A stretch of 64,000 nt of DNA from an uncultured Gammaproteobacteria bacterium. GTDB taxonomy: Bacteria; Patescibacteriota; Patescibacteriia; SBBC01; CAIJZX01. Under the pieces are notes generated by a model that worked only from the letters and a program-made list of their open reading frames with translations, made no database searches and was not told where the DNA came from. Shown piece after piece: positions 3,954 to 61,751 of the stretch (the stretch's first letter is position 1; the number at the start of each line of letters is the position of its first letter). The stretch is taken from the NCBI GenBank assembly GCA_964349465.1, contig CAYGGC010000001.1:33428-97427 (forward strand), in the 5' to 3' direction. Both the position numbers and the translations under genes were made by a program.

Positions 3954-4030
3954 AGAGAATAGAGGGAGTAGGGTAAGAAAATTGTTCCTTATGTAGTTGA
4001 TCGCGACTTTTTCCGGAGGGAGGTCGAGCA

Positions 4031-10561: not shown

Positions 10562-10590
10562 TTGACATTCACTATCGAAAATCGTACAAT
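10562..10590 (+). promoter_or_regulatory. Consensus sigma70-type promoter TTGACA-17-TACAAT driving the giant surface-protein gene; divergent from LCP gene
   Basis: Perfect -35/-10 hexamers with 17-bp spacer; ATG 10607 lies ~10 nt after predicted TSS (short/leaderless). Confidence 0.5.
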
Positions 10591-10606
10591 ATATTTAGCA
10601 ATTTTC

Positions 10607-31383: not shown

Positions 31384-32769
31384 ATGGAGGCGCGTCGAGG
31401 CATGGTTTATCGAGCGGTCGCCTGGCGCAGCGGAGTCATCGTTAGCGCCATGCTCTGGTGCTTTTTTGCGAACACGCACTCAGCGCATGCTGCCGCCTCA
31501 TTAAAAATTACCCCCGCCTCAGGGACGTACGAGGTGGGAGCGTTGGTTGACGTTTCCTTCTTACTTGATACGGGCGGAGATGCCGTGAACGCGGTTCAGG
31601 CCGACATTCAATTTCCGGCCGATAAGTTACAGGTTGTGAATCCAGTCGCGAGCACCTCGTTTATTTCCGTCTGGGTCACAACGCCGACCTATTCGAATAC
31701 TGACGGGACTTTAAAGTTTCAGGGCGGCTTACCAAGTCCAGGGATTAAAACGAGCGGTGGTGTTATTAGTACCGTTTCATTTCGTGTGAAGGCGGCGGGT
31801 CGTGCGACGATTACGTTCGCATCCACCTCAAAAGTTTTACGGAACGATGGTGAGGGAACAAATATTCTTAGTTCAACCGGGACGGCGGATTTTACCTTGA
31901 AAGTCCCGCCGCCTGAGGGTCCGGTGGTAAAAAGCCCAACCCATGGTGATCTCAATCGTTGGTACAATTCCCCCCAAGTCCAGTTTGTGTGGGACTCGGT
32001 CGACGGTGCGAGTGGCTACAGTTATTCCTTCGATCAGAACGCGAAAGTAACCCCTGACGAAACGATTGAAGGAATAACAGCGGCCACCAGCATGAAGGCG
32101 ACTGGGGATGGTGTATGGTTTTTTCATATCCGAGCGAAGACGGACACCTGGGGCGGAACGACGAGTTTTCCGGTCCAAATCGATACGACCCCGCCGGCCA
32201 GTTTTACGCCCACGTTTGATCATGACCTGATTACCATCGAAGATGTTGGGACCCTGCGGTTTGTTACGACCGACGGCGCTTCAGGTCTTGATTACTATGA
32301 AGTAAAGCAGGTCACCTTGACCGGGGATGCGGCGACAAATAGTTTGTTTGTGGAATCGAGCAGTCCTTACGTTATCCCAAAACTGGGAGCAGGAAAATAT
32401 GAATTTATCGTGCGTGCATTCGACCGCGCCGGAAATACAACCGAAGGCAAGGGGCAGCTGGAAGTTATTGCTAGCGGCGTGCCCTTCTATGCCCGAGTTC
32501 CGATCCTGCGCGACCCAGCGGTGGCAAACGGGGCGCTTGTTGTCCTGGGATCGCTCTTTGTCGGGGCCGCTTCGATGCTGGTCCTTCGGCGGGTCCGTGT
32601 CCGTTCAACCTTCCAGCATGATTTTGAGCGGCTCGAACGAGACGCGCATCGAAAGGCTGAGCAACTGCAACGCGAACTTGAACAGCTGCGTTCGGCCCAG
32701 CGACTGGTGCAGAGTGATCTTGGGCCCGACCCCGGACTATCTCCTCAGCCTCATCAGCCGCCACGATGA
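31384..32769 (+). CDS. Cohesin-domain protein paralog 2 (cohesin + Fn3-like + TM + coiled-coil/Pro-rich cytoplasmic tail)
   Basis: ASLKITPASGTYEVGALVDVSFLLDTGGDAVNAVQADIQFPADKLQVV cohesin signature; paralogous to neighbours. Confidence 0.8.
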   Translation: MEARRGMVYRAVAWRSGVIVSAMLWCFFANTHSAHAAASLKITPASGTYEVGALVDVSFLLDTGGDAVNAVQADIQFPADKLQVVNPVASTSFISVWVTTPTYSNTDGTLKFQGGLPSPGIKTSGGVISTVSFRVKAAGRATITFASTSKVLRNDGEGTNILSSTGTADFTLKVPPPEGPVVKSPTHGDLNRWYNSPQVQFVWDSVDGASGYSYSFDQNAKVTPDETIEGITAATSMKATGDGVWFFHIRAKTDTWGGTTSFPVQIDTTPPASFTPTFDHDLITIEDVGTLRFVTTDGASGLDYYEVKQVTLTGDAATNSLFVESSSPYVIPKLGAGKYEFIVRAFDRAGNTTEGKGQLEVIASGVPFYARVPILRDPAVANGALVVLGSLFVGAASMLVLRRVRVRSTFQHDFERLERDAHRKAEQLQRELEQLRSAQRLVQSDLGPDPGLSPQPHQPPR

Positions 32770-38264: not shown

Positions 38265-38705
38265 ATGGCCTTGATGGAACAAATCGAAAACGACTACAAA
38301 GAGGCGTTTAAGGCCCACCAGACGGCGAAAGTCAGTATGCTCCGGATGGTCAAATCAGCCTTGAAAAACGTCGAAATCGCCGTTCGTCACAATCTGACCG
38401 ACGAAGAAATCATCGCCGTGATGACCAAAGAGGCGAAACGTCGCCGTGAATCTATAGCGATGTTTCAAGAGGCTGGTCGGACTGAGCTGGTCGATCAAGA
38501 AAACGCCGAGCTCCAAGAGTTGATGCTCTATCTACCAACACAAATGAGCGATTCGGAAGTCGAAGCGCTTGTCGTGGCCGTCATAAGCGAACTGAAAGCG
38601 ACGGCAAAAGATTTTGGTCAGGTGATGAAAACCGTGACCGAACGATCGAAAGGCCAGGCCGATGGCAGTCGCGTCGCGCCGGTCGTCAAAAAACTTCTCA
38701 AGTAA
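38265..38705 (+). CDS. yqeY: GatB/YqeY-domain protein
   Basis: Conserved rpsU-yqeY pairing; YqeY-like sequence over full length. Confidence 0.85.
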   Translation: MALMEQIENDYKEAFKAHQTAKVSMLRMVKSALKNVEIAVRHNLTDEEIIAVMTKEAKRRRESIAMFQEAGRTELVDQENAELQELMLYLPTQMSDSEVEALVVAVISELKATAKDFGQVMKTVTERSKGQADGSRVAPVVKKLLK

Positions 38706-38730
38706 ATCAATTCAAAACTCTTCCCGTTTC

Positions 38731-41700
38731 ATGCGTCGTATTTCCATGCGCCGACAGCATGCCTGGGTCCTGACCGGACTCATCCTCGTCACCGTTCTCG
38801 CGGTGGCGGGGCTTGGGGTTGCGTCGCGAGCTTCGGCCCAGACGACGTTTAGCGTCGAATCGATTGGCGGCCAAATTGGTCTCGGCGACGCCGATCTTCG
38901 TCAGGTTGTCTTGAACGTTATCCGCTGGGTGCTCGGAATTCTCACGCTGACCGCGGTCGTCTATATGATGTATGGCGGCTATTTATGGCTGACGGCGGCG
39001 GGGAACGAGAAGCGGGTCGAAAAAGCGAAACAGGTTATTCTCCAAGCCGCAATTGGGTTAGTGATTGTCTTGCTGGCCTGGGCGATTGTGCTTTTCGTGA
39101 CTCGCTCGTTAGCGAATGTGACAAACACCAGTAATCCAGATGGCGGAAGTACCGGTGGAACCTGTAACCCATTGATTGAAGAGTGCGGAGAAGTGACCGC
39201 TTTTGACGTAACTAATATCGCGAGTTGTGCAGTCGGCGATGCGAACAGTAACGTTCCGCGTTCGAGCGCGATCCAGTTGACCTTTAACGCGAACCTGAAA
39301 GACGGAGCGGTCCAACAAGCTGTTGCAGACGACGTGACAAACGCAAATCCGCCGAACCTCATCGTCCAAAAGTGCGCGAATAATGATTGTGCAAACCCAG
39401 CGAACCTGAGCACCCCGGTGCCACTCGAAAATCAACGTTTTATTTCCGGAACGAAGCCAACGACGACCGGCACGCCACCGCAAGCTGACTGGACCCAAAA
39501 GGGGAAGGTCGTGACCTTTTATCATGTGGCGAATGATACGCTGGCCGCGGATGCGCGACTGTTTGAGCCGAACCAAAAATATCTCCTGACGATTCCGGCG
39601 AAAGATGCGAGCAAGGCGTTGCTTGATGTGAACGATCGGAAAGTCCAAAACTGTCGCCGACAGACGTCGGATATTGCCGGTCTGCCTGGGTGCGACGCGT
39701 CGGGAACCGATCGGATTACTTGGGAATTTACGACTGGGGCCGATACGGATGGTCCAGCCCTCAGTGTCGCGTCAGCCTACCCATCATTTGCCTATCAAAC
39801 GTCGACCGTTTCGCCAAATCGTTCTGTCGATCGCTCGAGCTTCCTGTCGATTCAATACAATACCCCGATAGATTTTAATACGCTCACGGCCGATAATTTT
39901 AAAGTGTTTAAATGCGGCACGACAAATATCCCATCGGCAACGAATGACTGGAACGAATGCGATGATGAAACGGCTAATCAAATCCCGTCGAGCAACTTCG
40001 TGGTTGAGCCCCGACCGGATGGTCGCGGTGGCCTTCTTCGACTCGTCAGCCCAGCGCTGTATGAGGCTTTTACCTGGTACAAAGTCGAAGTCAGCAATGT
40101 TCGAAGCCTCTGTGGCCGCGTGCAAGAACCTCCGACGAAAACCTGGGTGTTCCAAACGAACGACGCTGTCCCAGGGGTGAAAAAAGTGTATCCGCGTGAT
40201 GGGTACCAAAACGCTTGCCCAGCGACGAAGGTGTTTATTCAGTACGCGACCTCGATGTGGGACGGCTCGTCGTTTGACTGTAATGTCGGCGGTGGGAGCT
40301 ATGTCTCGCGCGGCCTGATGACGAATAATCCGGGCCGGACACTTATTCCCTCGAGTGTCTTTGATGCGAACGATCCGAAGACCTGCACGATGTATGAATT
40401 TAGTTCGACCTCGACGTTACTGCCGCCGAACACGAATTTTGAAGCGCGGGTCGAATCCGATTTGGTCATTGATACGAATGGCCGAAAACTCAACTATGGC
40501 TATACCGTCGCGGGGAGCACCAGTGAAGGGCCATGGGCCTTTAAGACGGCCACGGCGTCGACCTGCGCTCAGGAACCTGTCATCATCAAAGTTTCTCCGG
40601 GGCAAGGGCCGGACGGGTTATGTTTATCCGTGATTGGCGACTACTTTGAAAAAGTGAACCTTGCGGATACAAACACCGATCGTCCTGATGCTGGCGACGG
40701 CTTAACCTTACGAGCGCGGAACCAGACCGCCGATACGTGGACGAATGATTTTATTGTCTCGAGCGTTGACGCTGGTCCGACGGGCGGGGGACTCACCCGT
40801 AACGCGTCGCATCCGTATGTCGTAACGGTCAATTACCCCGCGCCGATTGGTCCGCTGGTCAGCTCGCCGGAAAATTTTTATCTCACTGATGATCCGGCTT
40901 CGCAGGGCCCATGTCTCACGAAAATTTCTCCGACCCAAGGACCGGTGAATACGACGGTGGTCGCGACCGGAAAACGGCTTGGGACCGGTGGCCAGGTTGA
41001 ATACAGCACAAAAATTCCTCCTAACTGGACCGTGGCTGGTTCATGGACCGACACACGAATTGATGGTATCAACGTCGACCCTGGGTCGCCCGGTGGCCGT
41101 GGTGACGTGACGGTGGTAACCGGTGGGCAAGTGAGTAACCCGTTGCCATATACAGTGAAGACAGTTGTTGACGCTCCAGGAACAGCGCCTCGGGTTGTTG
41201 AGACGACGACCTGTAGCTCAACGACGACCCCGAGTCCGAATCCGCGACGCGATGAAGCTGCGGCTTGTATAAACGCTTGGCCGTCGGCTCGCTTTACGGT
41301 TGAGATGGACCCAGCAACATTGAATCAAACGAATATTCGTCTTGAATCATGCGATGCTGGTTACACCACTTGTGCGCCGGTTGTAGCGGTAGTGGACGCA
41401 GATGCAAACAATCGTGGTTTCAAGATAAAACCCACGGCCAACCTCCTCCCAGCGACGGCCTATCGGGTGACGATTTCTGGCGTCACGAGCGCTGACGCCG
41501 TGCCGATGGCTGGAATCTACCAATGGCGATTTACGACGAAAGCCGGGAATGTTGAATGTCCGATCGATCGCCTGGTTATCAATCAAAGCGACCGCGTCTT
41601 TAATCGCGCCTTTACTCTCGGGTTACCAACTAGCGTAACCGATAGCGCCTGCAATGAAATTGACGGTAGTGGGCTAACCTATGCGTGGAATAATTCCGAT

Positions 41701-44325
41701 CCGACCATTTGCGCACTTATCCCTGGGCATACCGGCTATCAAAATATTTGTCGCAGTGACGACCCGTTGGTGGTCGAAGGTGAAACACGTGTGCGCGCGA
41801 GCCTGCCGAGCGAAAACATTACCTCTAACGAAGTGAAAATTACTGCTGATCTGGTGGCGTGTGAAACTTCCGCCCAATGCGCCTGCGGTGGAAACTTGTC
41901 CTCACAATGCGTTGGAGGAAAATGCCAACCGGTTGTGACCTCAATCAGTCCGAACAACGGTCGGGTTGGTACCTGGGCGACGATCGAAGGGTGTTGGTTC
42001 GGAACCTACAATGCGGCGAATAGCAAAGTAGTCTTTTCTGACAACAAAGAAGGTATTGTCCCCGTCTCTGCTTCAAATGCCTGTACGGCCGGAAATACCT
42101 GGACGAACACGCAAATTATCCGTGAAGTTCCGACACTTGAAGAACCAACGAATGATGTGACGAATGACGCGGTGACTGGACCGGTTCGGGTTGTTCGTCG
42201 CGATCAGGTTTCGGTGAGTAGTAGTCCATTGGAATTTCAGATTAGTCCGGAAGAATACCCGAAAATTTGTCGAATTGATCCGAGCTCGCGCCGGCCGGGT
42301 GAAGTCGCGACGGTCTATGGAAAAGATTTAGGGACGGACCAGGGGAGTGGCGACAGTCTGACCTTGTCAGATGATGATACGACGACGGTGACGCCCTTCG
42401 CGGGCTATCCGCAGTGGGACGCTGATCGAATTGGTGTGGTGGCGCCAAATCCTGGCGTTGGCTTGAATGTCTATGGCGCCGGAAAAGTACGCGTGACGCA
42501 CCTTGGAAAAACCTCTAACCCACTAGCGATGACGCTCGTCGATCCAACCGCTGGCGGTGGAACCGGATCTTGTGCGGCTGCCGATCTTTGTGTGGATGAT
42601 TCAACGTGCGGGACAGGTCGCGGCTGCGGCTTCGATCATTGCTGTGCGACCCGCCCAGTCGTGACCGCGACGCGGCCGTTGGCTGGGGAAACGGATGTTT
42701 GCCGGAATACGCAAGTGCAAGTTGATTTTAGTCAGCCACTCTTACCAGCCTCTGTCACGTCGGCCACGTTCCGCTATCTTGATGGTGCACAAGTCGTCCA
42801 GGGCAAAGTCGGGCTCTTGAGTAACCGAACAACGGTGACCTATACGCCGGGCCTACTTTCACCGAACAGTATCCAGAGTTTGAAACTTACCCCAGCAGAT
42901 GGGCAATCAACCTTACTCCGTGGCGTCACTGGGGTACTCGCGGATATTCCGTCATCCTTCTCTCTCGGCTTTACCTCGAGCGCGGCGATCTGCGCGCTTG
43001 ATCGCGTGGTGGTCACGCCGGCCAGTAAAATTCTGACTGCGACCGGACAAACGTACTCGCCGGATCCGCTCGCGCAAGCCTTCAGTGGTCGTCGTTCGGC
43101 GCCGCTCAGCGAGGTGCCTGGTGTGTATGAATGGGATTGGCGCTGGGAACGGGTTGGCGGCAGCGATGCTATCGCGACCGTGCAGAATCAGAATTCTCCG
43201 ACGACGACCATTCAGGCGGGGACGACGCGTGGAAAAATTGCCGCGAAAGCGACGGCGAAAGTCACGGTCGACAATAACAATAACGCCACGGTCAATCGTG
43301 AAGCCTCCGGTCAAACGAGCGTGACGGTTGATTTCTGTGAAAACCCTTGGGTCTTTACTGATCAAGCGGCGAATTGCACGGCGAATCCAAATCCTGGGTC
43401 GACTGCCGAAGACGCCTGCCCAAGTTTCCACATGAAACTCTATTATTGCGCGAGTGCCTCGGAACCGTTACTCAACCATCAAGCGATCGAGGGTCGAAAC
43501 CGCGTCGATCCCGCTCGGAAGAAAAGCTTCTTCTTTAAGGAATCTGAAGCTAGTCAGGACGCTATTGGGGTACTGGTTTTTGCCAACCCGGAACTGTTAT
43601 CACCGTACGATTGGTTCAAAGATCGTTTCCCCGGCGTCAACCCAGGCTCCTCCACGACGATTGGTGGATACCCAGCGGTGCGGACGGGCACAACGGCGTA
43701 TATTGGTGTGACGGATTTGACCGACGCTGGTCAGTTGGCCGGGTATATGTTTGTCATCGATTTTAATTCCAATAGCGCTTCATCGTCGACCCAGTCTATC
43801 TACAATCGCATCCTCAGCACCATTGAATTTAATGCGACCCAGTCTCTGAGTGATGACGACCGAGCTGCGATCGTAAGTGATACGCAACGGGTCCAGGATC
43901 TCCGCAGCATTAAGTCCCTATTGGAAGTGTATAAAACAGCGAATAGTCGTTACCCAGATCTTCCGGCGGGTTCCTTTATTCCGGGCTTTACCACCTCAAC
44001 CTGGCCGTCGTGGCAACGCGAGTTGGCGAATGCCCTTGGTCGAACTCTGCCGAGCGACCCGACCAATGGATTTGCGCCAGGCGTCTGTCAGGCCCCATAT
44101 GAAGCGGCGAGTTGCTGGGCCGAGTCAACCCGACAATTTCAATGCCCGGTTGGGTCACAGATCTACTCCTACAAAACCCTGAATGGGGGATCGAGTTACG
44201 AGTTGTTCGCGAATTTGAAATATACCGGTGCTGGCGGATTCAATAATTTTACGGGGAACCCGTGTACCGGCCTCGGTACAAATAATAGTACCTGCGCCTG
44301 CTTTAACTATCGAGTTACGCCATGA
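38731..44325 (+). CDS. Large (~1,865 aa) surface protein: N-terminal CPR-type 'T4SS_pilin'-like module (signal peptide + two hydrophobic helices) followed by numerous IPT/TIG- and Ig-like domains and Cys-rich segments (ORF track start 38662 overlaps yqeY)
   Basis: N-terminus LNVIRWVLGILTLTAVVYMMYGGYLWLTAAGNEKRVEKAKQVILQAAIGLVIVLLAWAIVLFV; repeated …ISPxxGxxGTxxTIxGxxFG motifs. Confidence 0.8.
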   Translation: MRRISMRRQHAWVLTGLILVTVLAVAGLGVASRASAQTTFSVESIGGQIGLGDADLRQVVLNVIRWVLGILTLTAVVYMMYGGYLWLTAAGNEKRVEKAKQVILQAAIGLVIVLLAWAIVLFVTRSLANVTNTSNPDGGSTGGTCNPLIEECGEVTAFDVTNIASCAVGDANSNVPRSSAIQLTFNANLKDGAVQQAVADDVTNANPPNLIVQKCANNDCANPANLSTPVPLENQRFISGTKPTTTGTPPQADWTQKGKVVTFYHVANDTLAADARLFEPNQKYLLTIPAKDASKALLDVNDRKVQNCRRQTSDIAGLPGCDASGTDRITWEFTTGADTDGPALSVASAYPSFAYQTSTVSPNRSVDRSSFLSIQYNTPIDFNTLTADNFKVFKCGTTNIPSATNDWNECDDETANQIPSSNFVVEPRPDGRGGLLRLVSPALYEAFTWYKVEVSNVRSLCGRVQEPPTKTWVFQTNDAVPGVKKVYPRDGYQNACPATKVFIQYATSMWDGSSFDCNVGGGSYVSRGLMTNNPGRTLIPSSVFDANDPKTCTMYEFSSTSTLLPPNTNFEARVESDLVIDTNGRKLNYGYTVAGSTSEGPWAFKTATASTCAQEPVIIKVSPGQGPDGLCLSVIGDYFEKVNLADTNTDRPDAGDGLTLRARNQTADTWTNDFIVSSVDAGPTGGGLTRNASHPYVVTVNYPAPIGPLVSSPENFYLTDDPASQGPCLTKISPTQGPVNTTVVATGKRLGTGGQVEYSTKIPPNWTVAGSWTDTRIDGINVDPGSPGGRGDVTVVTGGQVSNPLPYTVKTVVDAPGTAPRVVETTTCSSTTTPSPNPRRDEAAACINAWPSARFTVEMDPATLNQTNIRLESCDAGYTTCAPVVAVVDADANNRGFKIKPTANLLPATAYRVTISGVTSADAVPMAGIYQWRFTTKAGNVECPIDRLVINQSDRVFNRAFTLGLPTSVTDSACNEIDGSGLTYAWNNSDPTICALIPGHTGYQNICRSDDPLVVEGETRVRASLPSENITSNEVKITADLVACETSAQCACGGNLSSQCVGGKCQPVVTSISPNNGRVGTWATIEGCWFGTYNAANSKVVFSDNKEGIVPVSASNACTAGNTWTNTQIIREVPTLEEPTNDVTNDAVTGPVRVVRRDQVSVSSSPLEFQISPEEYPKICRIDPSSRRPGEVATVYGKDLGTDQGSGDSLTLSDDDTTTVTPFAGYPQWDADRIGVVAPNPGVGLNVYGAGKVRVTHLGKTSNPLAMTLVDPTAGGGTGSCAAADLCVDDSTCGTGRGCGFDHCCATRPVVTATRPLAGETDVCRNTQVQVDFSQPLLPASVTSATFRYLDGAQVVQGKVGLLSNRTTVTYTPGLLSPNSIQSLKLTPADGQSTLLRGVTGVLADIPSSFSLGFTSSAAICALDRVVVTPASKILTATGQTYSPDPLAQAFSGRRSAPLSEVPGVYEWDWRWERVGGSDAIATVQNQNSPTTTIQAGTTRGKIAAKATAKVTVDNNNNATVNREASGQTSVTVDFCENPWVFTDQAANCTANPNPGSTAEDACPSFHMKLYYCASASEPLLNHQAIEGRNRVDPARKKSFFFKESEASQDAIGVLVFANPELLSPYDWFKDRFPGVNPGSSTTIGGYPAVRTGTTAYIGVTDLTDAGQLAGYMFVIDFNSNSASSSTQSIYNRILSTIEFNATQSLSDDDRAAIVSDTQRVQDLRSIKSLLEVYKTANSRYPDLPAGSFIPGFTTSTWPSWQRELANALGRTLPSDPTNGFAPGVCQAPYEAASCWAESTRQFQCPVGSQIYSYKTLNGGSSYELFANLKYTGAGGFNNFTGNPCTGLGTNNSTCACFNYRVTP

Positions 44326-52527: not shown

Positions 52528-52582
52528 TTGACCCACCCCTAGATGTAGTAGTATACTACCCCCACGCAGTACTAGATGTAGT
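52528..52582 (+). promoter_or_regulatory. nrdR promoter TTGACC-18-TATACT overlapped by palindrome GTAGTATACTAC and two direct repeats CTAGATGTAGT spaced 33 bp: candidate NrdR/other operator
   Basis: Hexamers and repeats read directly; located ~165 bp upstream of nrdR ATG 52748. Confidence 0.45.
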
Positions 52583-52747
52583 GGTCATATCGAAAACGCG
52601 ATTGACCGCCTTCAAACAAAACCTCAAGAACATTCACACTCACGTCCCTGCCCAGCGGGCCCCGGTTCCCCGCCTCTCTGGCTGCTTTTGCTGGTCGTTT
52701 CAGCTCGTCTGAATTGCCTGACGCAGCGGAGTTTTCTCTATCTTCAG

Positions 52748-53221
52748 ATGAAGTGCCCATCCTGCCACAATAGCGATACGAGCGTCACTGATTCCCGCGT
52801 GACGGAAGAAGGTTTAGCGATCCGTCGTCGCCGCGAATGCGATAAATGCGGGTATCGATTCTCAACGGTCGAAGAAGTGGAAATTCTTAACTTGACGGTG
52901 GTCAAGCGGGATGGCGCTCGGGAGCCGTACGATCGCGATAAGGTTGAAGCTGGTGCGCGGAAAGCCCTGGAGAAGCGTCCGATTACTGGTGACACGTTGA
53001 AAAAGTTAATTGGCCAGATTGAACGAGATATCCAGGTTCGTGGCCGAACCGAAATTACGTCGCAACAGATTGGGGAGATCGTCATGAAACGATTACAGCG
53101 TATTGATCAGGTTGCCTACATCCGCTTTGCCTCAGTCTACCGTCAATTCCAAGATATCGAATCCTTTAAGCGCGAACTGAATCGGTTGACCGGCCCACGT
53201 CGACCAAATAAAAAAACCTAA
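52748..53221 (+). CDS. nrdR: Transcriptional repressor NrdR (zinc ribbon + ATP-cone)
   Basis: [18 protein letters not shown]…[12 protein letters not shown]…. Confidence 0.9.
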
Positions 53222-53342
53222 CTCTATTTATTTCAAACTAAACCGTCCGTCCATGCCTGACTCCACGATCGCCTCGGATCGCCTCCGATCCGCCTCATCG
53301 ACCACTCGCACCGCCGCTGTTCCAAAACGGACCGGACCGGGC

Positions 53343-56300
53343 ATGAAAATTCGTCGCCTGTTTACGATGGTGGGACATGATCCGCTCGAGCAGCTTCAAT
53401 ACGAGCTTCGCTCATCGATCATCAAAAATCCGGATGGGAAGATCGTGAAAGAAATAAAGAACGTTGAAGTCCCGGTCACCTGGAGTCAGGTCGCGACCGA
53501 TATTTTAGCGCAAAAGTATTTCCGCAAAGCCGGTGTGCCACAGAAAGACGCGACCGGGAACCCGATGATCGGTGTGGACGGTCAAGCGGTGCTTGGTTCG
53601 GAAACGAGCGCGAAACAGGTGATTCGCCGCTTAGCTGGAACCTGGAGATTCTGGGGTGAAAAGTACGGCTACTTTTTTTCGAAGGAAGACGCGCAGGCCT
53701 ATCAAGACGAGATGGAGCACATGCTTATCCGCCAAATGGGTGCCCCAAACTCGCCACAATGGTTTAATACCGGCTTGAACTGGGCGTATGGCATCACCGG
53801 CAGCCCACAAGGCCACTACTATATTGAACCGGAAACCGGCGTTCTGAAGAAATCAGAAGACGCCTATACCCACCCGCAACCACACGCCTGTTTTATTCAG
53901 AAAGTGAATGACGACCTGGTGAATGAGGGTGGGATTTTTGATCTCGTAACGCGTGAAGCGCGTTTGTTTAAATTTGGTTCAGGCACGGGAAGTAATTTCT
54001 CTAATCTCCGCGGCGCGAAAGAAAAACTGTCCGGCGGTGGTACGAGCTCGGGGCTCATGTCATTCTTGCGGATCTTTGATCGCTCCGCGGGGGCGATTCA
54101 ATCCGGCGGTACGACCCGTCGAGCAGCGAAAATGGTAATCATTAACGCTGACCACCCGGATATTGAAGAATTTATAAATTGGAAAGTGATTGAAGAACAA
54201 AAAGTGGCGGCACTGGTTTCGGGGAGTAAAACAAACGCGAAATACCTGAACGAAATCATGCAGACCGCTGCGACCGAGAACACGACGGATTACCATAAGA
54301 ACGAACCGTTGAAAAAAGTGGTTCGGGCGGCGCTCCAGCGCAACGTACCGCTCAATTACATTGTTCGCGTGCTCGCGCTCGTTGAACAAGGTCACGCGAC
54401 GATTGATTTCCGAACATATTCAACCCACTTTGAGGGTGATGCGTACAACACCGTTTCCGGACAGAACTCGAACAACTCGGTCCGCGTGACAAATGAGTAT
54501 ATGGGCGCGGTCGAACGGAACCAAGATTGGAATTTAACTTCTCGTACCAATGGCTCGGTCATGAAGACATTGAAGGCTCGCGAACTGTGGGAAGAAATTG
54601 GGTATGCCGCGTGGGCTTGCGCCGACCCAGGTTTGCAATTTGATACAACCGTGAACGAATGGCACACCTGCCCTGAGGATGGTCGGATTAATGGTTCGAA
54701 TCCGTGCTCGGAATATATGTTCTTGGATGATACGGCCTGCAACCTCGCTTCAATCAACTTGGCGCATTTCTATAATGCTGAGAACGGGCAATTTGACACC
54801 GAGGGCTTTAAACACGCCGCCCGGATTTGGACGATCACGCTGGAAGTTTCCGTGTTGATGGCGCAATTCCCGAGTAAGGAAATTGCCGAGCTGTCGTATA
54901 TTTTCCGGACGCTTGGACTTGGGTATGCGAACCTCGGGACGGTCTTGATGATGATGGGCGTGCCGTACGACTCGCCGCAAGCTTTATCGATTGCTGGCGC
55001 CATTAGCGCAATTATGACCGGCGAAGCGTATGCAACCTCGGCCGAAATGGCGAGTCACCTCGGCGCTTTTCCGGGTTACGAACGGAACCGTGAACACATG
55101 CTCCGCGTTATTCGGAACCATCGCCGCGCCGCCTACAACGCTCCTGAAGGCGAGTACGAAGGGCTGACAATCAAACCGATGGGAATTAATCCCGAACACG
55201 CCTCTGACGCCCTGGTGAAATCCGCTCGTGAAACGTGGGACCGGGCCTTGCAATGGGGGAAGGAGCATGGCTTCCGCAACGCCCAAGTGACCGTCATCGC
55301 GCCAACCGGAACGATCGGCTTGATCATGGACTGTGATACGACCGGCGTCGAACCAGATTTCGCGATTGTGAAATTCAAGAAACTCGCCGGCGGCGGATAT
55401 TTCAAAATCGTTAACCAATCCGTTAACAAAGCCTTGAAGCGCCTCGGGTACTCGGAACAGCAGATTAAGGACATTGAAAACTATTCGCGTGGGGCCGGAA
55501 CCCTCGTCGGCGCACCATTCATCAATCACGAAACCTTGAAGACAAAAGGTTTGAATAGCGAAGATCTGGCCAAGATGGAGCTCTCGCTCGACGGCGCCTT
55601 CGATATCCGGTTCGTCTTAAACCCGCTAACCTTCGGTGAAGAAACCATGAAGCGCCTTGGTCTCGGCGCACACGCGAACGAAAGCGCCTTCAACGTGCTC
55701 GAAGCGCTCGGCTTCACAAAAGAACACATCAACGCTGCCAATGAATATGTGACCGGGACGATGACCACTGAAGGCGCGCCGCACCTCAAGACTGAACACT
55801 ATCCGATTTTCGATTGCGCGAATAAGTGCGGCACGAAGGGGGAGCGCTATATTGCCTACAACGCTCACGTGAAAATGATGGCCGCGGTGCAACCGTTCAT
55901 TTCTGGCGCGATCTCAAAAACGATCAACATGCCGTCGAACGCGACGATCGAAGAAGTAAAACAAGTCTATTGGGATTCGTGGAAAATGATGATCAAAGCT
56001 GTCGCGCTCTATCGCGATGGATCAAAACTTTCTCAGCCCCTCAATAGCACCTCGGAAGAGGACGAAGTGGCGATGCTGGGTGATGAGGAAGACAACGTTG
56101 CCGAAGTAACCCCGCAGATGGTCAACGCTGTTGCGACCGTGAACGCGGTGAAGCGAAAACTGCCTTCGAAGCGCGTCGGCTGGACGCAGGAAGCGGTCGT
56201 CGGTGGACACAAAGTCTTCGTTCGGACCGGCGAATATGATGATGGTCGACTCGGCGAAGTCTTCATCGATATGTATAAAGACGGCGCGGCCTATCGCTCC

Positions 56301-56759
56301 CTGATCAACTGCTTCGCGATTTCGATTTCGAAAGGCTTACAACACGGCGTACCGCTCGAAGAATACGTTGATACCTTTACCTTCACGCGGTTTGAACCCG
56401 CCGGTCCGGTCCAAGGTCATCCGAACCTGAAAATGTCGACCAGTATTCTTGATTACATTTTCCGTCTTCTGGGCTACGAGTATCTCAACCGTGATGATCT
56501 TGTCCAAGTCAAACCAGAAGCGGGTGAACATCCGGTGCAGGTCCAGCTGCCAACGATGCAACCGGTCGTGGCTGAAAAACCCCGTAGCCAAGCAACCAGC
56601 GCTGTCTCGATGAGCCCGTCCGAACCGGATTCACGCTCAACTGCCCGCGCTCAAGGCTTTACCGGTGATACTTGTACCAACTGTGGTTCAATGAAAATGA
56701 AACGCAACGGCTCGTGCATGGTCTGCATCGAGTGCGGAACCACCACCGGCTGTAGCTAA
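53343..56759 (+). CDS. nrdJ: Class II (adenosylcobalamin-dependent) ribonucleotide reductase NrdJ, long form with C-terminal Cys4 zinc ribbon (ORF track start 53253)
   Basis: N-terminus …[13 protein letters not shown]… typical of NrdJ; …[22 protein letters not shown] at C-terminus. Confidence 0.9.
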
Positions 56760-56788
56760 TATTATTCACTAACTTCCGAACGGAATGG

Positions 56789-57622
56789 TTGAACCGCTCG
56801 AAACACTGGACAAGAGAAATGGGAATATGGTTTCGTCCTAAGGACCCCTCAGCTAAACGTAAAAATGTTCAGAAGAAGCGCCAAAGCACCTCCAGCCTTG
56901 GTGCTTCTGGTAAAGTGCTAGCGAGTGTTTCAATTATTTTCAGTGGGCTGTTCGCTGCAATCGTCGCCCCGATTTTGACACCGTTTGCACAGGCCTACTA
57001 TAACAAGCATTTTGGACCTCCCAAAACTTACGTTTCTTTGACCGGAAACGAACCAACGGTGTTTGGCCAGCCCAAAGGGTGTATTAACTGGTCGTTGTCA
57101 GTGATGAAGTTGCTGAGCGAATGTGAGAACGGATATTTATTGTCAGTCGACGGGGTGCCAGAAAAATCTCGAGTGGATTTCGAAATTATCCCGTGCTCCG
57201 ATAAGTTGAACACATATATAATTTTGGAAAACGGGTTTATGTTATTTATAGGTGACGGTGACCGTCGGTCGGTGATTCTAAAAAAAATGAACGCCGATGG
57301 AACATGGAGCTATTGGAAACCGGATGGCTACGAAAAGGAGAAAGTGTTTCTTCCTTCCGAAATTCCAATCAACCACGCCTTACGTGGAGCTATAGATATT
57401 GATGCAAAACCCAAGGAATCTGGTTCTCGAGAGGTTGAGCTTTCCATGCGCTTTTATGATGCTGACGGGGCGTTGATTGAATCAGGTGAAATTACATGGA
57501 ACTTTACGCTCACACATAGTTTTGACTCCGATGCGCGAGTTGGAATTGGCCTGGCGGATCCGTATCTAAACACCTCTCCATGCGTAAAAATTAATACATT
57601 TAAGGTGACTAGCCGAGACTAA
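56789..57622 (+). CDS. Hypothetical membrane-anchored protein; markedly lower GC than flanks
   Basis: Hydrophobic segment LASVSIIFSGLFAAIVAPIL; AT-rich codons; no family recognised; stop overlaps btuR start. Confidence 0.6.
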   Translation: MNRSKHWTREMGIWFRPKDPSAKRKNVQKKRQSTSSLGASGKVLASVSIIFSGLFAAIVAPILTPFAQAYYNKHFGPPKTYVSLTGNEPTVFGQPKGCINWSLSVMKLLSECENGYLLSVDGVPEKSRVDFEIIPCSDKLNTYIILENGFMLFIGDGDRRSVILKKMNADGTWSYWKPDGYEKEKVFLPSEIPINHALRGAIDIDAKPKESGSREVELSMRFYDADGALIESGEITWNFTLTHSFDSDARVGIGLADPYLNTSPCVKINTFKVTSRD

Positions 57623-58197
57623 TGCCTCTACGCGCTCCAAAAACCCTCCGTGCCGCTGACCGTGGTCTCACCCATGCCTATATTGGTGACGGCAAAGGAA
57701 AAACCACCGCCGCGGTTGGTACTGCAGTCCGGGCGGTTGGGTACGGTTGGAAGGTGTGTTTTCTCCAGTTCGTCAAGGAGGCAGCCTGGCCGAGCGGGGA
57801 GCGGCAATCGCTCCGCAAACTTGGGATCGAAGTCCTCGTCGTCGGCGAGGGATTCTTTAAAATCCTGAATGATCGGAAACCCGAGGAGGTGCATAAAGCG
57901 ACCGCCCTGAAAGCCCTCGAGGTCTTGCGGGAAAAAGTTTTCTCTGGGCAGTATAAGTTAGTTGTCGCCGATGAACTCGGTTCAGCGATTGACGAAGGGA
58001 TTCTCGAAAAAAAGTTGGTGGAAAAATTCATGAAGGATCGAGCGAAGGATAAGGTTGCAAAAATGGTTCATCTGATTTGGACCGGCCATAAAAAAATTCC
58101 ATCACTTTTGAAATATGCCGATTTGGTGACGGAAATGAAGATGGTCAAGCACCCATACTATAAAGGTATTATTGCGACCAGAGGCCTAGATTACTAA
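57622..58197 (+). CDS. btuR: Cob(I)yrinic acid a,c-diamide / cob(I)alamin adenosyltransferase (CobA/CobO/BtuR family)
   Basis: GDGKGKTTAAVGTAVRAVGYGWKVCFLQFVK P-loop and C-terminal VKHPYYKGIIATRGLDY characteristic of the family. Confidence 0.85.
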   Translation: MPLRAPKTLRAADRGLTHAYIGDGKGKTTAAVGTAVRAVGYGWKVCFLQFVKEAAWPSGERQSLRKLGIEVLVVGEGFFKILNDRKPEEVHKATALKALEVLREKVFSGQYKLVVADELGSAIDEGILEKKLVEKFMKDRAKDKVAKMVHLIWTGHKKIPSLLKYADLVTEMKMVKHPYYKGIIATRGLDY

Positions 58198-58207
58198 ACT
58201 GTGAGCT

Positions 58208-58510
58208 ATGAAATACAATAAACTTGTCCGCGATAACATCCCAGCCATCATCAGTGCTAAAGGCGGTACAGCGGTGACGCACATTGCAACGCCCGAGGAA
58301 TACGACGAAAAAGTACGGACAAAACTCCAGGAAGAAGTAACGGAATTTTTGGAGAGTAATAACCCCGAGGAGCTCGCTGATGTCCTGGAAGTTCTCTATG
58401 CAATTGCCGGCCGACTCGGTCACACGAAAGAAACCCTTGAAACACTGCGGCGACAAAAAGCCGATGAGCGGGGTGGGTTTCAAGAAGGTATTATCCTTGA
58501 GGAATCGTAG
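58208..58510 (+). CDS. Small MazG-like nucleoside triphosphate pyrophosphohydrolase domain protein
   Basis: MKYNKLVRDNIPAII…ELADVLEVLYAIA…ADERGGFQEGIILEE. Confidence 0.8.
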   Translation: MKYNKLVRDNIPAIISAKGGTAVTHIATPEEYDEKVRTKLQEEVTEFLESNNPEELADVLEVLYAIAGRLGHTKETLETLRRQKADERGGFQEGIILEES

Positions 58511-58524
58511 AGCAAACATCTAGT

Positions 58525-58700
58525 TGACGGTGAGCCGCTCTTTCGCTACACTCGAACCTCGGTAAGCCGGTGTCATTCCGGCAGGGTCCCGCCACCGTAT
58601 ACTCGGACGCCGTTCTGCCCTTGTCGATGGGTAGAAAAAGACAAGACCTTCGTGGAAAGGCAGCAATCTTCGTGCACGGATTGCCTGCTACATCACGTTG
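58525..58700 (+). promoter_or_regulatory. Probable cobalamin (AdoCbl) riboswitch in the 5' leader of the DUF4430 lipoprotein operon
   Basis: GGUAAGCCGGUGUCAUUCCGGCAGGGUCCCGCCACCGUAUAC fits the B12 element core (…GGUG.AA.UCC…CCCGCnACUGU… with B12-box GCCACCG); downstream GUGGAAAGGCAG; 223-nt untranslated gap. Confidence 0.5.
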
Positions 58701-58733
58701 GCGGGTAGTTTATTTATAACCCCCAACAAACGT

Positions 58734-59102
58734 ATGAAGAAGAAAATCCTTATCCCAGTTCTGGCGCTCGCCCTCTTCGGCGCGTCATGCTGGACACAGT
58801 CGGTCAACATCAATTCAAGGACGCTCAACGAAAACGGTAACACGAACACCGTCGCCTGTGCCGCCGCCGCGGGCAATCCGTCGTATGCTGGTCAAGACGG
58901 GAAAAATGCTTTAGAATTACTGCAAGCAGATCATCAGGTCGACGTCAGCGCCGAGGGCTTCGTTAACGCCATCGACGCGAAGAAGCCGGCCGATCGTCAA
59001 TTCTGGGCCTTCTATGTCAATTGCAAACAAGCCGAAGTCGGCGCCAAAGACTATCAAACGAAAACCAGCGACCTTGTCGAGTGGAAGCTTGAAAGTTTCT
59101 AA
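58734..59102 (+). CDS. DUF4430-like (transcobalamin-like) lipoprotein, putative surface B12-binding protein
   Basis: Lipobox LALALFGAS-C; …ELLQADHQVDVSAEGFVNAIDAKK…QFWAFYVNCKQAEVGAKDYQTKTSDLVEWKL pattern of DUF4430. Confidence 0.75.
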   Translation: MKKKILIPVLALALFGASCWTQSVNINSRTLNENGNTNTVACAAAAGNPSYAGQDGKNALELLQADHQVDVSAEGFVNAIDAKKPADRQFWAFYVNCKQAEVGAKDYQTKTSDLVEWKLESF

Positions 59103-59190
59103 GCAACCACGTCGTTCGACGCGCTCGGCAAAACCTCGCCTGACGAAGGTGAGGAAAGCTTTACCGTCTCAAACGAATACCGCCAACACC

Positions 59191-59727
59191 ATGGCGATGA
59201 CGACGGCAGTTCCCGAGCGCCCGAGCCATGGCCCGATCACTCCAGTCATGCCGAGTGCTCGGTTAGCCTTACCGACGGAGGAGTTGAACGCGAGTGCAGG
59301 ACCACTCGATTGGAAAGCGCTCGTGATGGCTGGGTTACTCGCTCTGGGTTTTTCCTCGACCTTTCTTGGGCCGGCCTTGCGCATTCAAACTGATCAACGG
59401 ATCGGCGGCCAGATTCTTGGCGAAAGCGATAGTCAGCCGCTCACGATTCCCGTGACGGTTGAACGAAATGACCAAGTGGCCACCATTGTGACGAAGCCGT
59501 CAACCGGGACGATGACCGACGCGTTGGCTCGCGCTGCCGCCAAGCTCGGCGGGACGTTACGGTACGACAGCCGCGGGTCATCAATCTACCTGACCGAATA
59601 TTTGTCGACGAAAAACACCGCCGAAGCGGCCTGGGTCGTGCGTCATAACGATGTCGTCGTGACGGACCTCAGTTCAGTGCTACTACGGCAAGGTGACACA
59701 GTGACGATTAGCTCGCGGCGACCATGA
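59191..59727 (+). CDS. Single-TM membrane protein with beta-rich extracytoplasmic domain (possibly second DUF4430-like module); ORF track start 59014 overlaps previous gene in another frame
   Basis: TM WKALVMAGLLALGFSSTFLG; …AWVVRHNDVVVTDLSSVLLRQGDTVTI. Confidence 0.5.
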   Translation: MAMTTAVPERPSHGPITPVMPSARLALPTEELNASAGPLDWKALVMAGLLALGFSSTFLGPALRIQTDQRIGGQILGESDSQPLTIPVTVERNDQVATIVTKPSTGTMTDALARAAAKLGGTLRYDSRGSSIYLTEYLSTKNTAEAAWVVRHNDVVVTDLSSVLLRQGDTVTISSRRP

Positions 59728-60290
59728 GCCTATCTCCGAAGCGTTCGGTTCTGACGATCGGCCTATTCCTTATCACCGCTGGGATTGTTTTGCGTGTTGC
59801 ACGGCATTACGGCTTGATCGAGCTGCCGCCGAACTTCGCGCCCGTGAGCGCGATCGCGATGTTTGGCGCGGTTCTGTTACCGCGCCGCTGGGCGGTGATT
59901 ATCCCTTTTGTTCTGATGTTCGCGAGCGATTGGCTGATCGGGTTTTACCTTCTGCCGATTATGCTGACGGTCTACGCGAGCTTTGGTGTGAGCATCGTGA
60001 TTGGTTGGTGGCTGCGACGACGCGTGACGACCGGCCGAGTGTTAGCGAGTAGCCTCGTTGGCTCGATTGTTTTTTTTCTCGCGACCAACGCGGCTGATTG
60101 GGGGTTTGGGAACTGGTACCCGCATACGATGGCCGGGTTACTCCAGGCCTATGCTGCCGGACTTCCATTCTTTCGAAATACGGTCCTCGGCGACCTGATC
60201 TACACGGGTGTTGCTTTTGGCGTCTACGGCGCTGTTATGGTATATTTCCGGCGTCGCGCCACCGTAACCGCGACCGTCAATGGCCAATAA
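59724..60290 (+). CDS. Small polytopic (5-6 TM) membrane protein; candidate ECF-type S component (substrate possibly cobalamin, by operon context)
   Basis: 188 aa, hydrophobic throughout; translationally coupled within riboswitch operon. Confidence 0.65.
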   Translation: MSLSPKRSVLTIGLFLITAGIVLRVARHYGLIELPPNFAPVSAIAMFGAVLLPRRWAVIIPFVLMFASDWLIGFYLLPIMLTVYASFGVSIVIGWWLRRRVTTGRVLASSLVGSIVFFLATNAADWGFGNWYPHTMAGLLQAYAAGLPFFRNTVLGDLIYTGVAFGVYGAVMVYFRRRATVTATVNGQ

Positions 60291-61179
60291 TATCCGTCGT
60301 TATCAACCACGTCGATCATCTGGCTCCAAGCCCTGGGCCCGGATTGTGATTGGTTTGCTGGTGATTGTGGCTTTGGTCTTCATCGGTCGTGCCGTTCTGA
60401 GTGGAAATGGACGCGAAAATACATCGGCGACGAATGAGCCGAGTATTACTCTCGTGAACGACGCTGTCGCGTCGAACACGAACGCCTCCGATCTCCCAGC
60501 GAACACGAACGTAGCCACGAAGGAGAACACAAATGCGACGACGACTGAACCGGAATTAACAACGGTGCCTGAAGGGGTTTGTGCCGAACCGATTGCGAAA
60601 TACGGAGACAACAAGGTCGCTGTGTTGACCTTTGAAATGTCCGCAGCGAATGATAACGCGAAACAACTTCTCGCCCAGTTGAAAAAAAACAACACCCCGG
60701 CAAGTTTTTTTGCCACCGGAACGTTCGCTGAAAAAAATCCTGACTTTCTCAAAAGTGTTGTGTCGGATGGGTATAGCGTCTATAACCGCGGATACGATAG
60801 CACCAACCTAACGACGCTCACCGCCGAGACGATTCCGGTCCAACTGACGAAGGCCGCAGCGGCGATTGAAGCGGCGACAGGATTATCACCGACGCCATAC
60901 CTTCGACCAGCTTTTAGTGACACCAATGAAACCGTTGTGAAGGCTGCGACAGAGGCAGGGTACTGTCTTATTCTCGGGACGATCGACGCCACTGATTGGC
61001 AAGATGGTGTGACCGCCGCGGCCGCGGTCGATCGTGTTATGGCGAAACTTCAGCCCGGGATGATTATTCAACTTCACGCTGGTTATGATATTACCGCGGC
61101 TACCGTCGCGGGTCTGGCGACGGAGATGAAGGCAAAAGGGTATAGTCTTGTGACTCTGCCAACGCTCCTGAACTCATAG
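60280..61179 (+). CDS. Membrane-anchored polysaccharide deacetylase (NodB/CE4) family homolog with non-canonical catalytic motifs
   Basis: …VAVLTFEMSAAN…ASFFATGTFAEKNP… resembles NodB motifs 1-2 but TFDD->TFEM and no H-x-x-x-H. Confidence 0.7.
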   Translation: MANNIRRYQPRRSSGSKPWARIVIGLLVIVALVFIGRAVLSGNGRENTSATNEPSITLVNDAVASNTNASDLPANTNVATKENTNATTTEPELTTVPEGVCAEPIAKYGDNKVAVLTFEMSAANDNAKQLLAQLKKNNTPASFFATGTFAEKNPDFLKSVVSDGYSVYNRGYDSTNLTTLTAETIPVQLTKAAAAIEAATGLSPTPYLRPAFSDTNETVVKAATEAGYCLILGTIDATDWQDGVTAAAAVDRVMAKLQPGMIIQLHAGYDITAATVAGLATEMKAKGYSLVTLPTLLNS

Positions 61180-61181
61180 AT

Positions 61182-61751
61182 ATGTTTACTGTCACGCGGC
61201 GCGTTAGTTTTTCCGTCGCGATCGCTCTACTCCTTGGCTGGGGAGCGATGTCGATCATGATTTTTCAATCGTCGAACTATTTATTGGCCGCCGAAACAAC
61301 CGATGAACACCGGGCGCAACCAGCAGCCGGAGTACGCCTGACGTTTCAAATCGACAAACGGATCTATCGGGGCGGGGAGCCAGTCCTAATTTCGTTACGC
61401 AATGATAGTCGAAAAGCAATTACGCTTGCCACGAACGCTGGTGGTTGTGGGTCTGGGTGGTGGTGGCTTCAACGGCAAGGTGCGGATGAATTAGAGTGGC
61501 GTGACGTGAGCCGCGGAAAAACGCCTTGCACCAGCGTTTCGAGTGGGCTTGAGTCTTTTTCCAAGGGTGCGTTGAAGACTGATGAATGGAATGGATTATT
61601 GATGACGGAAGCAATCGGCGAAGTTTTTGCGGAGGCACCGACTGGAACGTACCGGTTGGCAGCGCCATTTCTCGTTGGGGGAGAGGTGACCGAGACAGAT
61701 TGGAAGACGCAAAGCCGCTGGCGGTATTCGCCGGGGTTTACCATTCAATAA
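61182..61751 (+). CDS. Hypothetical secreted protein (signal peptide, Cys-containing)
   Basis: N-terminal hydrophobic segment; no family recognised. Confidence 0.6.
   Translation: MFTVTRRVSFSVAIALLLGWGAMSIMIFQSSNYLLAAETTDEHRAQPAAGVRLTFQIDKRIYRGGEPVLISLRNDSRKAITLATNAGGCGSGWWWLQRQGADELEWRDVSRGKTPCTSVSSGLESFSKGALKTDEWNGLLMTEAIGEVFAEAPTGTYRLAAPFLVGGEVTETDWKTQSRWRYSPGFTIQ

Follow-up and report, generated by a model that had tools for sequence, protein, structure and literature searches.

The window, a 64-kb stretch of contig CAYGGC010000001.1, contains at positions 52528-60290 a locus, with all genes on the + strand, which probably represents a two-unit corrinoid salvage-and-use system of a Patescibacteria (Kerfeldbacteria-like) bacterium. 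By the relatives of its proteins the organism belongs to the Patescibacteria, near Kerfeldbacteria. The locus had previously been described from the DNA letters alone as a vitamin B12 economy cluster of an auxotroph that scavenges corrinoids for DNA precursor synthesis (this description is called here the sequence-only reading). Its overall interpretation was supported: every element that it listed was found on the + strand at or near its assigned position, and profile searches bore out all the protein calls.

In the proposed mechanism unit 1 (nrdR-nrdJ-orf267-cobA-mazG-like) would be transcribed from a promoter that overlaps tandem NrdR boxes. The class II ribonucleotide reductase (RNR) NrdJ would reduce ribonucleotides with adenosylcobalamin (AdoCbl), and the CobA/BtuR enzyme would make AdoCbl from imported cobalamin. 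Unit 2 would have its own promoter, and its transcript would begin at J3/4 (GGUAA) of a shortened cobalamin aptamer. A DUF4430 lipoprotein and a membrane-anchored protein of 178 amino acids would together capture corrinoid at the cell surface and hand it over to the membrane protein DUF6580, which would carry it across the membrane. With plentiful corrinoid the aptamer would bind the ligand, the segment GUUGGCGGG would pair with CCCCCAAC just 5' of the AUG codon, and this pairing (termed B-C) would block translation initiation that proceeds without a Shine-Dalgarno (SD) sequence, shutting down uptake. The proposal is built on gene identities, on the structure and homology of the aptamer, on protein folds and on neighbourhood statistics. 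A wider reading is put forward tentatively: DUF6580 and its lipid- and transmembrane-anchored binders may form a previously unrecognised, cysteine-free corrinoid uptake system independent of energy-coupling factor (ECF) modules, widespread in Patescibacteria (at least 588 loci) and the third S-component-type B12 transporter beside CbrT and BtuM. In this lineage the system would be under the control of a new minimal class of cobalamin riboswitch, which starts at J3/4 (no P1/P2) and controls SD-independent initiation.

The transport function is assigned to the last of the three proteins encoded by unit 2:

59724-60290, + strand: DUF6580 membrane protein, 188 amino acids, six to seven transmembrane helices (PF20221, 1.3e-43)

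The AlphaFold2 (AF2) model of this protein had a pLDDT of 94.6. The best PDB match found by Foldseek was BtuM (8ovv) with a probability of 1.0, TM-scores of 0.68/0.72 and a root-mean-square deviation (rmsd) of 3.6 Å over 185 columns. The next structural matches were the ECF S-components FolT, PanT, ThiT and RibU (TM-scores 0.45-0.66). No match, BtuM included, was obtained when PDB was searched with the single sequence. A profile made from 51 members of the family matched CbrT (6FNP chain A, 182 amino acids) in its N-terminal half with an E-value of 3.6e-6, and the two families have the motif LR...PN(F/V)xP in common. By its model DUF6580 has the ECF S-component fold; it is a separate family, remotely related to CbrT. 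The sequence-only reading had likened one of the membrane proteins to an ECF S-component, and this agreed both with the top structural match and with the profile match. DUF6580 is accordingly listed here as a predicted corrinoid transporter.

The two genes preceding DUF6580 encode the candidate binders:

58734-59102, + strand: DUF4430 (transcobalamin-beta-like) lipoprotein, 122 amino acids (PF14478, 1.8e-9)
59191-59727, + strand: protein of 178 amino acids consisting of a short N-terminal tail, one transmembrane helix and a C-terminal transcobalamin-beta/DUF4430-like domain (AF2 and Foldseek)

The DUF4430 assignment of the lipoprotein, made in the sequence-only reading, was confirmed by a PF14478 score of 38.4 bits, over the gathering score of 23.8. 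The protein has a signal peptide, the cysteine of the GASC lipobox was invariant in six orthologues, and translation starts at the ATG at 58734, a gene call that was identical in L107 (L-numbers denote the related loci used for comparison). The protein is a predicted surface corrinoid binder. The next protein had been described as a small membrane protein. It has one transmembrane helix, but the simple description could not be kept, as the product was found to contain a transcobalamin-beta-like domain as well. The open reading frame (ORF) was set to 59191-59727 in place of 59014-59727, because the longer frame runs into the DUF4430 gene and its additional part shows no conservation. This domain is cryptic at the sequence level. 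The 178-amino acid protein had no Pfam match, Pfam gave nothing useful for all nine family members, and only nine homologues were present among 5.8 billion proteins. The C-terminal domain of the AF2 model had pLDDT values of 85-96 over residues 81-178. Its top Foldseek matches were the beta domain of human transcobalamin (5no0 and 5np4; apo and cyanocobalamin-bound), haptocorrin and intrinsic factor, and the comparison with the bacterial DUF4430 structure 3u7z gave a TM-score of 0.77 and an rmsd of 2.3 Å. When the family was aligned with that of the DUF4430 lipoprotein by hhalign, the probability was 0.3 because the alignments were too shallow; the relationship emerged through structure only. 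Unit 2 thus encodes two transcobalamin-beta-like surface proteins, one anchored by lipid and one by a transmembrane helix. BtuH of Bacteroides was not kept for comparison as a DUF4430/transcobalamin-like protein, since none of those terms occurs in its paper.

The end of the DUF6580 gene is overlapped by 11 nucleotides by a polysaccharide deacetylase gene (window region 60280-61751), which is followed by a conserved ORF of 189 amino acids and by HtrA. This gene order (deacetylase-189-amino acid ORF-HtrA) is kept in Kerfeldbacteria-like loci. Because the relatives have a gap of 55-60 nucleotides and a shorter deacetylase, co-transcription of the deacetylase with the riboswitch unit is uncertain. 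A promoter-like site is located at 60217-60246.

The link of the transport genes to B12, proposed in the sequence-only reading, received independent comparative support from gene neighbourhoods. Species-representative genomes contain at least 588 DUF6580 loci, of which the best 80 were used for the counts. A DUF4430 gene was present in 49 of these 80 loci and stood directly upstream of DUF6580 in 37. On the same strand, nrdJ was found in 24 and cobA in 20 loci; nrdR occurred in 13. A cobalamin-type aptamer was detected in 32 loci, always on the same strand and in 30 cases upstream of DUF6580. Altogether 59 of the 80 loci had at least one B12 marker. In L010 an Rfam-certified AdoCbl riboswitch (1912-2076) is followed by a gene for a 625-amino acid protein (2125-4002), by a second DUF4430 protein and then by DUF6580. 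In the 625-amino acid protein an alpha/alpha-toroid domain (SQHop_cyclase_C/Prenyltrans) is joined to a DUF4430 domain, in the same order as in eukaryotic transcobalamin and intrinsic factor. The arrangement of L014 (2123-4956) is similar: transcobalamin-like binders and then DUF6580 stand under an Rfam-certified AdoCbl riboswitch. A scan of eight ORFs in the riboswitch-controlled operons of L010 and L014 found neither ABC nor ECF genes.

In some loci an aptamer, either a second or the only one, was located 3' of DUF6580 (L055, 4013-4105 and 5822-5922; L040, 6153-6231; L062, 1268-1342). Such aptamers imply that further B12-regulated genes adjoin.

The leader of unit 2 comprises 223 nucleotides (58511-58733), in which the motifs GGUGUCAUUCC (58569-58579) and CCCGCCACCGU (58588-58598) are present. 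The following aptamer elements were assigned in it:

58561-58661, + strand: cobalamin-type aptamer, 5'-truncated (covariance model R1, covariation)
58561-63 with 58609-11, + strand: P3 (RNAalifold)
58566-70 with 58578-82, + strand: P4 (RNAalifold)
58584-93, + strand: P5/L5 (RNAalifold)
58595-97 with 58604-06, + strand: P6 (RNAalifold)
58601-11, + strand: B12 box, ACUCGGACGCC (sequence)
58613-20 with 58629-36, + strand: extra hairpin PX after the B12 box (RNAalifold)
58647-60, + strand: P13 hairpin (RNAalifold)

The core of the cobalamin aptamer, made up of L4 (GGUG..A.UCC, here GGUGUCAUUCC), L5 (CCCGC, here GGGUCCCGCC at 58584-93) and the B12 box, was present and (nearly) invariant in 13 relatives. 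The covariance model R1 was built from 13 aligned aptamers (MAFFT) with the window excluded; the sequences were leaders of close relatives and those obtained by scanning metagenomes for the invariant P13 motif. Searching the 64-kb window with R1 yielded a single, full-length match at 58561-58661 (E 1e-21), whose score of 98 bits is inflated because the window shares a motif that had been used to collect the training sequences. In the 80 DUF6580 loci R1 produced 33 matches, all on the gene strand. These included all eight loci (8/8) that meet the Rfam thresholds for RF00174, RF01482 or RF01689. Recovery of the Rfam-certified riboswitches, which do not have the motif used for collection, serves as an independent control.

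The RNAalifold consensus consists of the cobalamin four-way junction P3-P4-P5-P6 and of two hairpins, one following the B12 box and the other being P13. Compensatory changes were seen at 14 of its 25 pairs, and in the alignment of the 13 relatives they fall in P3, P4, P5 and P6. Standard pairs made up 97.8%, none of 500 shuffles equalled any of the observed measures, and slid controls were 34-54% paired. When folding was started from the predicted transcription start, the minimum free energy (MFE) structure had the same helices as the comparative structure (z = -2.3). Folding of 58511-58740, which includes the promoter, had given a misleading 5' pairing and was corrected in this way. P6 of the window is a hairpin of 3 bp; relatives carry P6 extensions of varied length. 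The leader is a cobalamin-type aptamer homologous to certified B12 riboswitches.

The 5' end of the transcript was predicted from a conserved promoter:

58524-58552, + strand: promoter of the uptake operon, TTGACG, 17 nucleotides, TACACT (consensus scan; conserved)

The form TTGAC(A/G/T/C), 16-18 nucleotides, TA-N3-T was found in nine independent sequences 7-11 nucleotides 5' of the J3/4 sequence GGYAW (GGUAA, GGCAA or GGUAU), with an unconserved spacer. In L081 and L089 the uptake promoter lies inside the preceding ORF. Transcription is predicted to start at about 58559. Since the promoter abuts the J3/4 sequence GGUAA, there is no room for P1/P2 or for a canonical 5' hairpin.

Between the aptamer and the start codon of the lipoprotein gene the following elements were recognized:

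58662-58733, + strand: expression platform (comparison and MFE folds)
58659-68 with 58679-89, + strand: variable hairpin P14, kept by compensatory changes
58697-58705, + strand: segment B, invariant GUUGGCGGG (relatives)
58720-58727, + strand: segment C, invariant (A)CCCCCAAC, ending 6 nucleotides before the AUG (relatives)

P14 is followed by the invariant CACGUUGGCGGG. Pairing between segments B and C was part of the MFE structure of all nine platforms of the window type (9/9). In L001, L081, L093 and L100 the loop of the B-C stem carries additional hairpins, and the stem of L100 contains a compensatory change (GGCAGG with CCUG). The invariant GGCGGG is also complementary to CCCGCC of L5, a pairing that is imperfect in L093 and L100. 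No SD-like purine-rich motif was detected in the 30 nucleotides upstream of the 32 window gene starts inspected, and the upstream regions of the window genes were rich in C, A and U. This suggests SD-independent initiation throughout the genome. As there is no SD motif, occlusion of the region 5' of the AUG is a plausible way of blocking initiation. We commit to a predicted OFF switch acting at translation initiation, whose exact alternative pairings are inferred.

Several observations on the leader weigh against a functional B12 riboswitch. The whole window gave no match at Rfam gathering scores, and the check by RF00174 was negative: with relaxed filters the leader scored 14.6 bits against a gathering score of 31.5, in a local match to model positions 49-166. 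(The placement of the B12 box in this match turned out to be wrong once the relatives were aligned.) None of the nine window-type leaders, the window included, reached any Rfam gathering threshold (RF00174, RF01482, RF01689), the best scores of the others being 36.7 of 50, 24.8 of 36.5 and 23.7 of 31.5. The inflated R1 score belongs here, too. The closing helices P1/P2 are absent from the window-type leader. The P13 loop is CGUGGA in the window type vs CGGGRA, complementary to UCCCG of L5, in L047-type relatives; the L5-L13 kissing pairing is therefore weakened to 3 bp, and ligand-dependent switching may work differently or not at all. Some of these features would fit a leader that is a non-sensing remnant, with constitutive expression of the uptake genes from the promoter at 58524-58552: the element is sub-threshold in Rfam, has neither P1/P2 nor the P6 extension and shows weak L5-L13 complementarity. 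However, the core is invariant, compensatory changes preserve P3, P4, P6 and PX between lineages that share only 56-78% identity in their DUF6580 proteins, and platform segments B and C are invariant as well. Such conservation is not that of a decaying element, and we consider a remnant most improbable. Rfam scores formed a gradient from L006 (47.1) through L005 (36.5), L022 (36.2), L047 (26.5) and L002 (19.9) to the window (14.6). The B12 riboswitch call of the sequence-only reading was right in substance by the lineage-specific model, and it failed the Rfam check. The main rival of the translational switch is a switch acting on transcription, in which the bound state would contain a weak intrinsic terminator made up of the hairpin CCUGCUAC/GUUGGCGGG and the adjoining 3' UAGUUUAUUUAU. 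At the homologous segment, L047, L092 and L103 (the related 5'-hairpin type) have an 8-bp stem with the U-rich tract CGUUUU after it, and a U-rich UUUAU motif is conserved 3' of GGCGGG. On the other hand, a terminator scan found none at 58685-58720 in the window and none in the L047 leader, the U-tract is interrupted, and all MFE predictions pair GUUGGCGGG with the AUG-proximal CCCCCAAC. We therefore regard termination as unlikely in the window, and because of the negative scan no firm terminator claim is made for the L047 subtype.

Assignment of corrinoid uptake to DUF6580 also meets with difficulties. The window protein matched PF20221 only and had no match to PF12822, which is matched by the CbrT fragment. 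There is no cysteine in the 188-amino acid sequence, nor in the conserved columns of the family alignment, and the chemistry of cobalt ligation and decyanation by Cys80 of BtuM cannot apply. Moreover, 21 of the 80 DUF6580 loci, several of them from other phyla, had no B12 marker within 5 kb. In one rival reading DUF6580 is not a solitary, BtuM-like transporter but a conventional ECF S-component which, like CbrT, needs an EcfA/A'/T module encoded elsewhere. The profile match was to CbrT, an ECF-dependent S-component, and shared ECF modules are commonly encoded apart from S-component genes, as stated in a passage of PMC5997447 that cites Rodionov 2009. Against this, the best structural match was the solitary BtuM (TM-scores 0.68-0.72 vs 0.45-0.66 for ECF-dependent S-components), and no ECF A/T gene was found among the window genes scanned (those outside the giant ORFs 10562-27124 and 38662-44325) or in the set of eight ORFs from the L010 and L014 operons. 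Dependence on an ECF module is in our view somewhat unlikely. The loci without a B12 marker could also mean that the substrate of the DUF4430/DUF6580 unit is not a complete corrinoid but, for example, cobalt, a different tetrapyrrole or a lower-ligand base; DUF6580 is named by no paper in the literature searched. Such a substrate is most improbable: both partners share the fold with which transcobalamin, haptocorrin and intrinsic factor bind whole cobalamin (PMC4350170), the genes stand under an aptamer of the cobalamin type, and the neighbouring genes encode enzymes using and making AdoCbl. We thus favour DUF6580 as the transporter of corrinoids captured by the two surface proteins.

Unit 1, located upstream of the riboswitch, contains the genes for use of the imported corrinoid:

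52528-52557, + strand: putative nrdR-nrdJ promoter of the sigma-70 type, TTGACC, 18 nucleotides, TATACT (consensus match only)
52536-52551 and 52569-52584, + strand: two NrdR-box-like sites, 33 bp apart (position-specific scoring and relatives)
52748-53221, + strand: nrdR, transcriptional repressor of RNR genes, Zn-ribbon and ATP-cone (TIGR00244, 3.6e-56)
53253-56759, + strand: nrdJ, class II AdoCbl-dependent RNR, 1168 amino acids (NF005736)
56819-57622, + strand: orf267, rare ORF, 267 amino acids, N-terminal transmembrane helix (no family match)
57622-58197, + strand: CobA/CobO/BtuR-type ATP:cob(I)alamin adenosyltransferase (PF02572, 1.4e-49)
58208-58510, + strand: MazG-superfamily (COG4997-type) putative nucleoside triphosphate (NTP) pyrophosphohydrolase, 100 amino acids, all-alpha (homologue annotation)

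NrdR scored 189 bits with TIGR00244 (cut-off 124.65) and also matched PF22811 and PF03477. The putative promoter overlaps the first NrdR box. The two sites fit the consensus acaCwAtATaTwGtgt at 10/16 and 11/16 positions, and a strict consensus search allowing at most three mismatches gave no match. Tandem boxes with a spacing of 31-33 bp were found upstream of nrdR in nine related loci. In the window the repeat CTAGATGTAGTRGT occurs twice, 33 bp apart, and the first site contains the perfect 12-bp palindrome GTAGTATACTAC. The class II RNR call was corroborated for NrdJ by the equivalog NF005736 (1829 bits, cut-off 1737) and by the class II N-terminal domain PF08471 (9.6e-38); PF02867 (2.3e-129) and TIGR02504 (604 bits) matched as well.

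The ORF between nrdJ and cobA can be read as 277 amino acids from the TTG at 56789, but the start at 56819 is likelier, as an identical database protein begins at residue 11. Its stop codon overlaps the cobA start (TAATG). It had been described as an orphan, and it indeed matched no Pfam, NCBIfam or PHROG family; it is not an orphan in the strict sense, since 14 distant relatives were found among 1.84 billion representative proteins. PHROGs matched none of the four ORFs of unassigned function that were searched. Matches to the C-terminal approximately 50 amino acids of orf267 recur in two giant proteins, as 10 stretches in one and 31 in the other. The nrdJ-cobA spacer is a variable hot spot, which is empty in L083 and is occupied by unrelated ORFs in L081, L085 and L089. 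Because orf267 is missing from this position in close relatives, being specific to this genome there, it is treated as a passenger in a variable spacer, outside the B12 system.

CobA matched PF02572 with 169 bits across profile positions 2-172 of 172, and its translation contains the P-loop GDGKGKTT. The earlier assignment to the BtuR/CobO-type adenosyltransferases was upheld by these matches, with scores below the NCBIfam equivalog cut-offs (TIGR00708, 134 bits vs 167.75; NF004637, 145 vs 185). The MazG-like call for the last gene of the unit agreed with the annotation of homologues: 274 were found, and they are named in JGI and NCBI house-cleaning NTP pyrophosphatase or NTP pyrophosphohydrolase, MazG superfamily. 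It fell short in Pfam, where the MazG-like and PRA-PH families PF12643 and PF01503 matched at E 0.008 with sub-gathering scores (16.9 and 17.1 bits vs 27 and 21.3), and searches of PDB with the single sequence and with the profile found no match. From annotation, the protein may have a role in sanitation of deoxynucleoside triphosphates. The gene stands directly 5' of the leader in L081, L085, L089 and L100, an order seen only in close relatives.

The absence of B12 biosynthesis genes, noted in the sequence-only reading, holds for the genes of the 64-kb window that were scanned, those outside the two giant ORFs: no cob/cbi gene was found among them. The remaining window genes are housekeeping genes (TopA, DprA, Mfd, Pth, LytR, signal peptidase, HisRS, FtsA, FtsZ and two DUF2079 proteins), and surface proteins are also encoded elsewhere in the window. 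The 5520-amino acid ORF (10562-27124, + strand) and the 1887-amino acid ORF (38662-44325, + strand) are single giant ORFs. They lie near genes for dockerin-domain (PF00404) and cohesin-domain (PF00963) proteins at 29398-30252 and 31384-32769, and the ensemble looks like giant surface proteins with a cohesin/dockerin pair in a bacterium with a tiny genome.

B12 uptake proteins are yet to be found in many bacteria (PMC6072759). None is known to have been described for Patescibacteria, a huge and uncultivated radiation. The results presented here suggest a concrete and testable function for DUF6580, an uncharacterised Pfam family, and the models reveal a probable second, cryptic cobalamin-binder domain in the 178-amino acid protein. 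Rfam-based annotation systematically misses the window-type riboswitch subtype, thus B12 regulons and dependency estimates in symbiont-like Patescibacteria are probably under-counted. No paper in the literature searched links candidate-phyla-radiation bacteria to cobalamin riboswitches. The locus implies that these cells would rely on corrinoids from neighbouring organisms to synthesise their DNA.

When compared with known systems, the leader shares L4, L5 CCCGC, the B12 box AGUCNGAC and the P3-P6 junction with the cobalamin riboswitches of Rfam clan CL00101 (RF00174, RF01482, RF01689). Like these, it is located upstream of B12 transport genes, and it grades into Rfam-certified relatives (L006, L005, L022). 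It differs from them in its transcript, which starts at J3/4 and has neither P1/P2 nor the 5' hairpin, in a P6 of only 3 bp, in the additional hairpin behind the B12 box, in its P13 loop (CGUGGA) and in a platform that would sequester an initiation region without an SD sequence. Transcobalamin (TCN) proteins have DUF4430 at the C-terminus (PMC4350170). In comparison with transcobalamin, intrinsic factor and haptocorrin, the window proteins contain the beta domain only, whereas the L010 relative has the full alpha-toroid plus beta arrangement. With respect to DUF4430 itself (PF14478, 3u7z), the lipoprotein matches the profile, while the 178-amino acid protein escapes Pfam and hhalign and matches by fold.

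BtuM of Thiobacillus denitrificans is a solitary S-component-like B12 transporter with Cys80 as cobalt ligand (Rempel 2018, PMC6072759; PDB 8ovv). DUF6580 is likewise a small membrane protein without transport partner genes alongside, but its sequence is only 17% identical to that of BtuM and contains no cysteine. BtuM is mostly proteobacterial and linked to BtuB. The closest known analogue of the window locus is the nrdJ-cbrS-cbrT-pduO cluster of the B12 auxotroph Lactobacillus delbrueckii, which has the ECF-CbrT transporter (Rodionov 2009; Santos 2018, PMC5997447). In both, the genes clustered with the class II RNR include one for a cobalamin adenosyltransferase and one for a small B12 transporter of the S-component type (predicted in the window), and L. 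delbrueckii has to import its B12. In contrast to that cluster, the transporter of the window belongs to PF20221 (DUF6580) and not to PF12822, the adenosyltransferase is of the CobA/BtuR type and not of the PduO type, two transcobalamin-beta-like surface proteins and nrdR are added, and the uptake genes stand apart as a unit under riboswitch control. Each role of the L. delbrueckii cluster is filled here by a different family: DUF6580 takes the place of CbrT and CobA that of PduO, and the binders are added.

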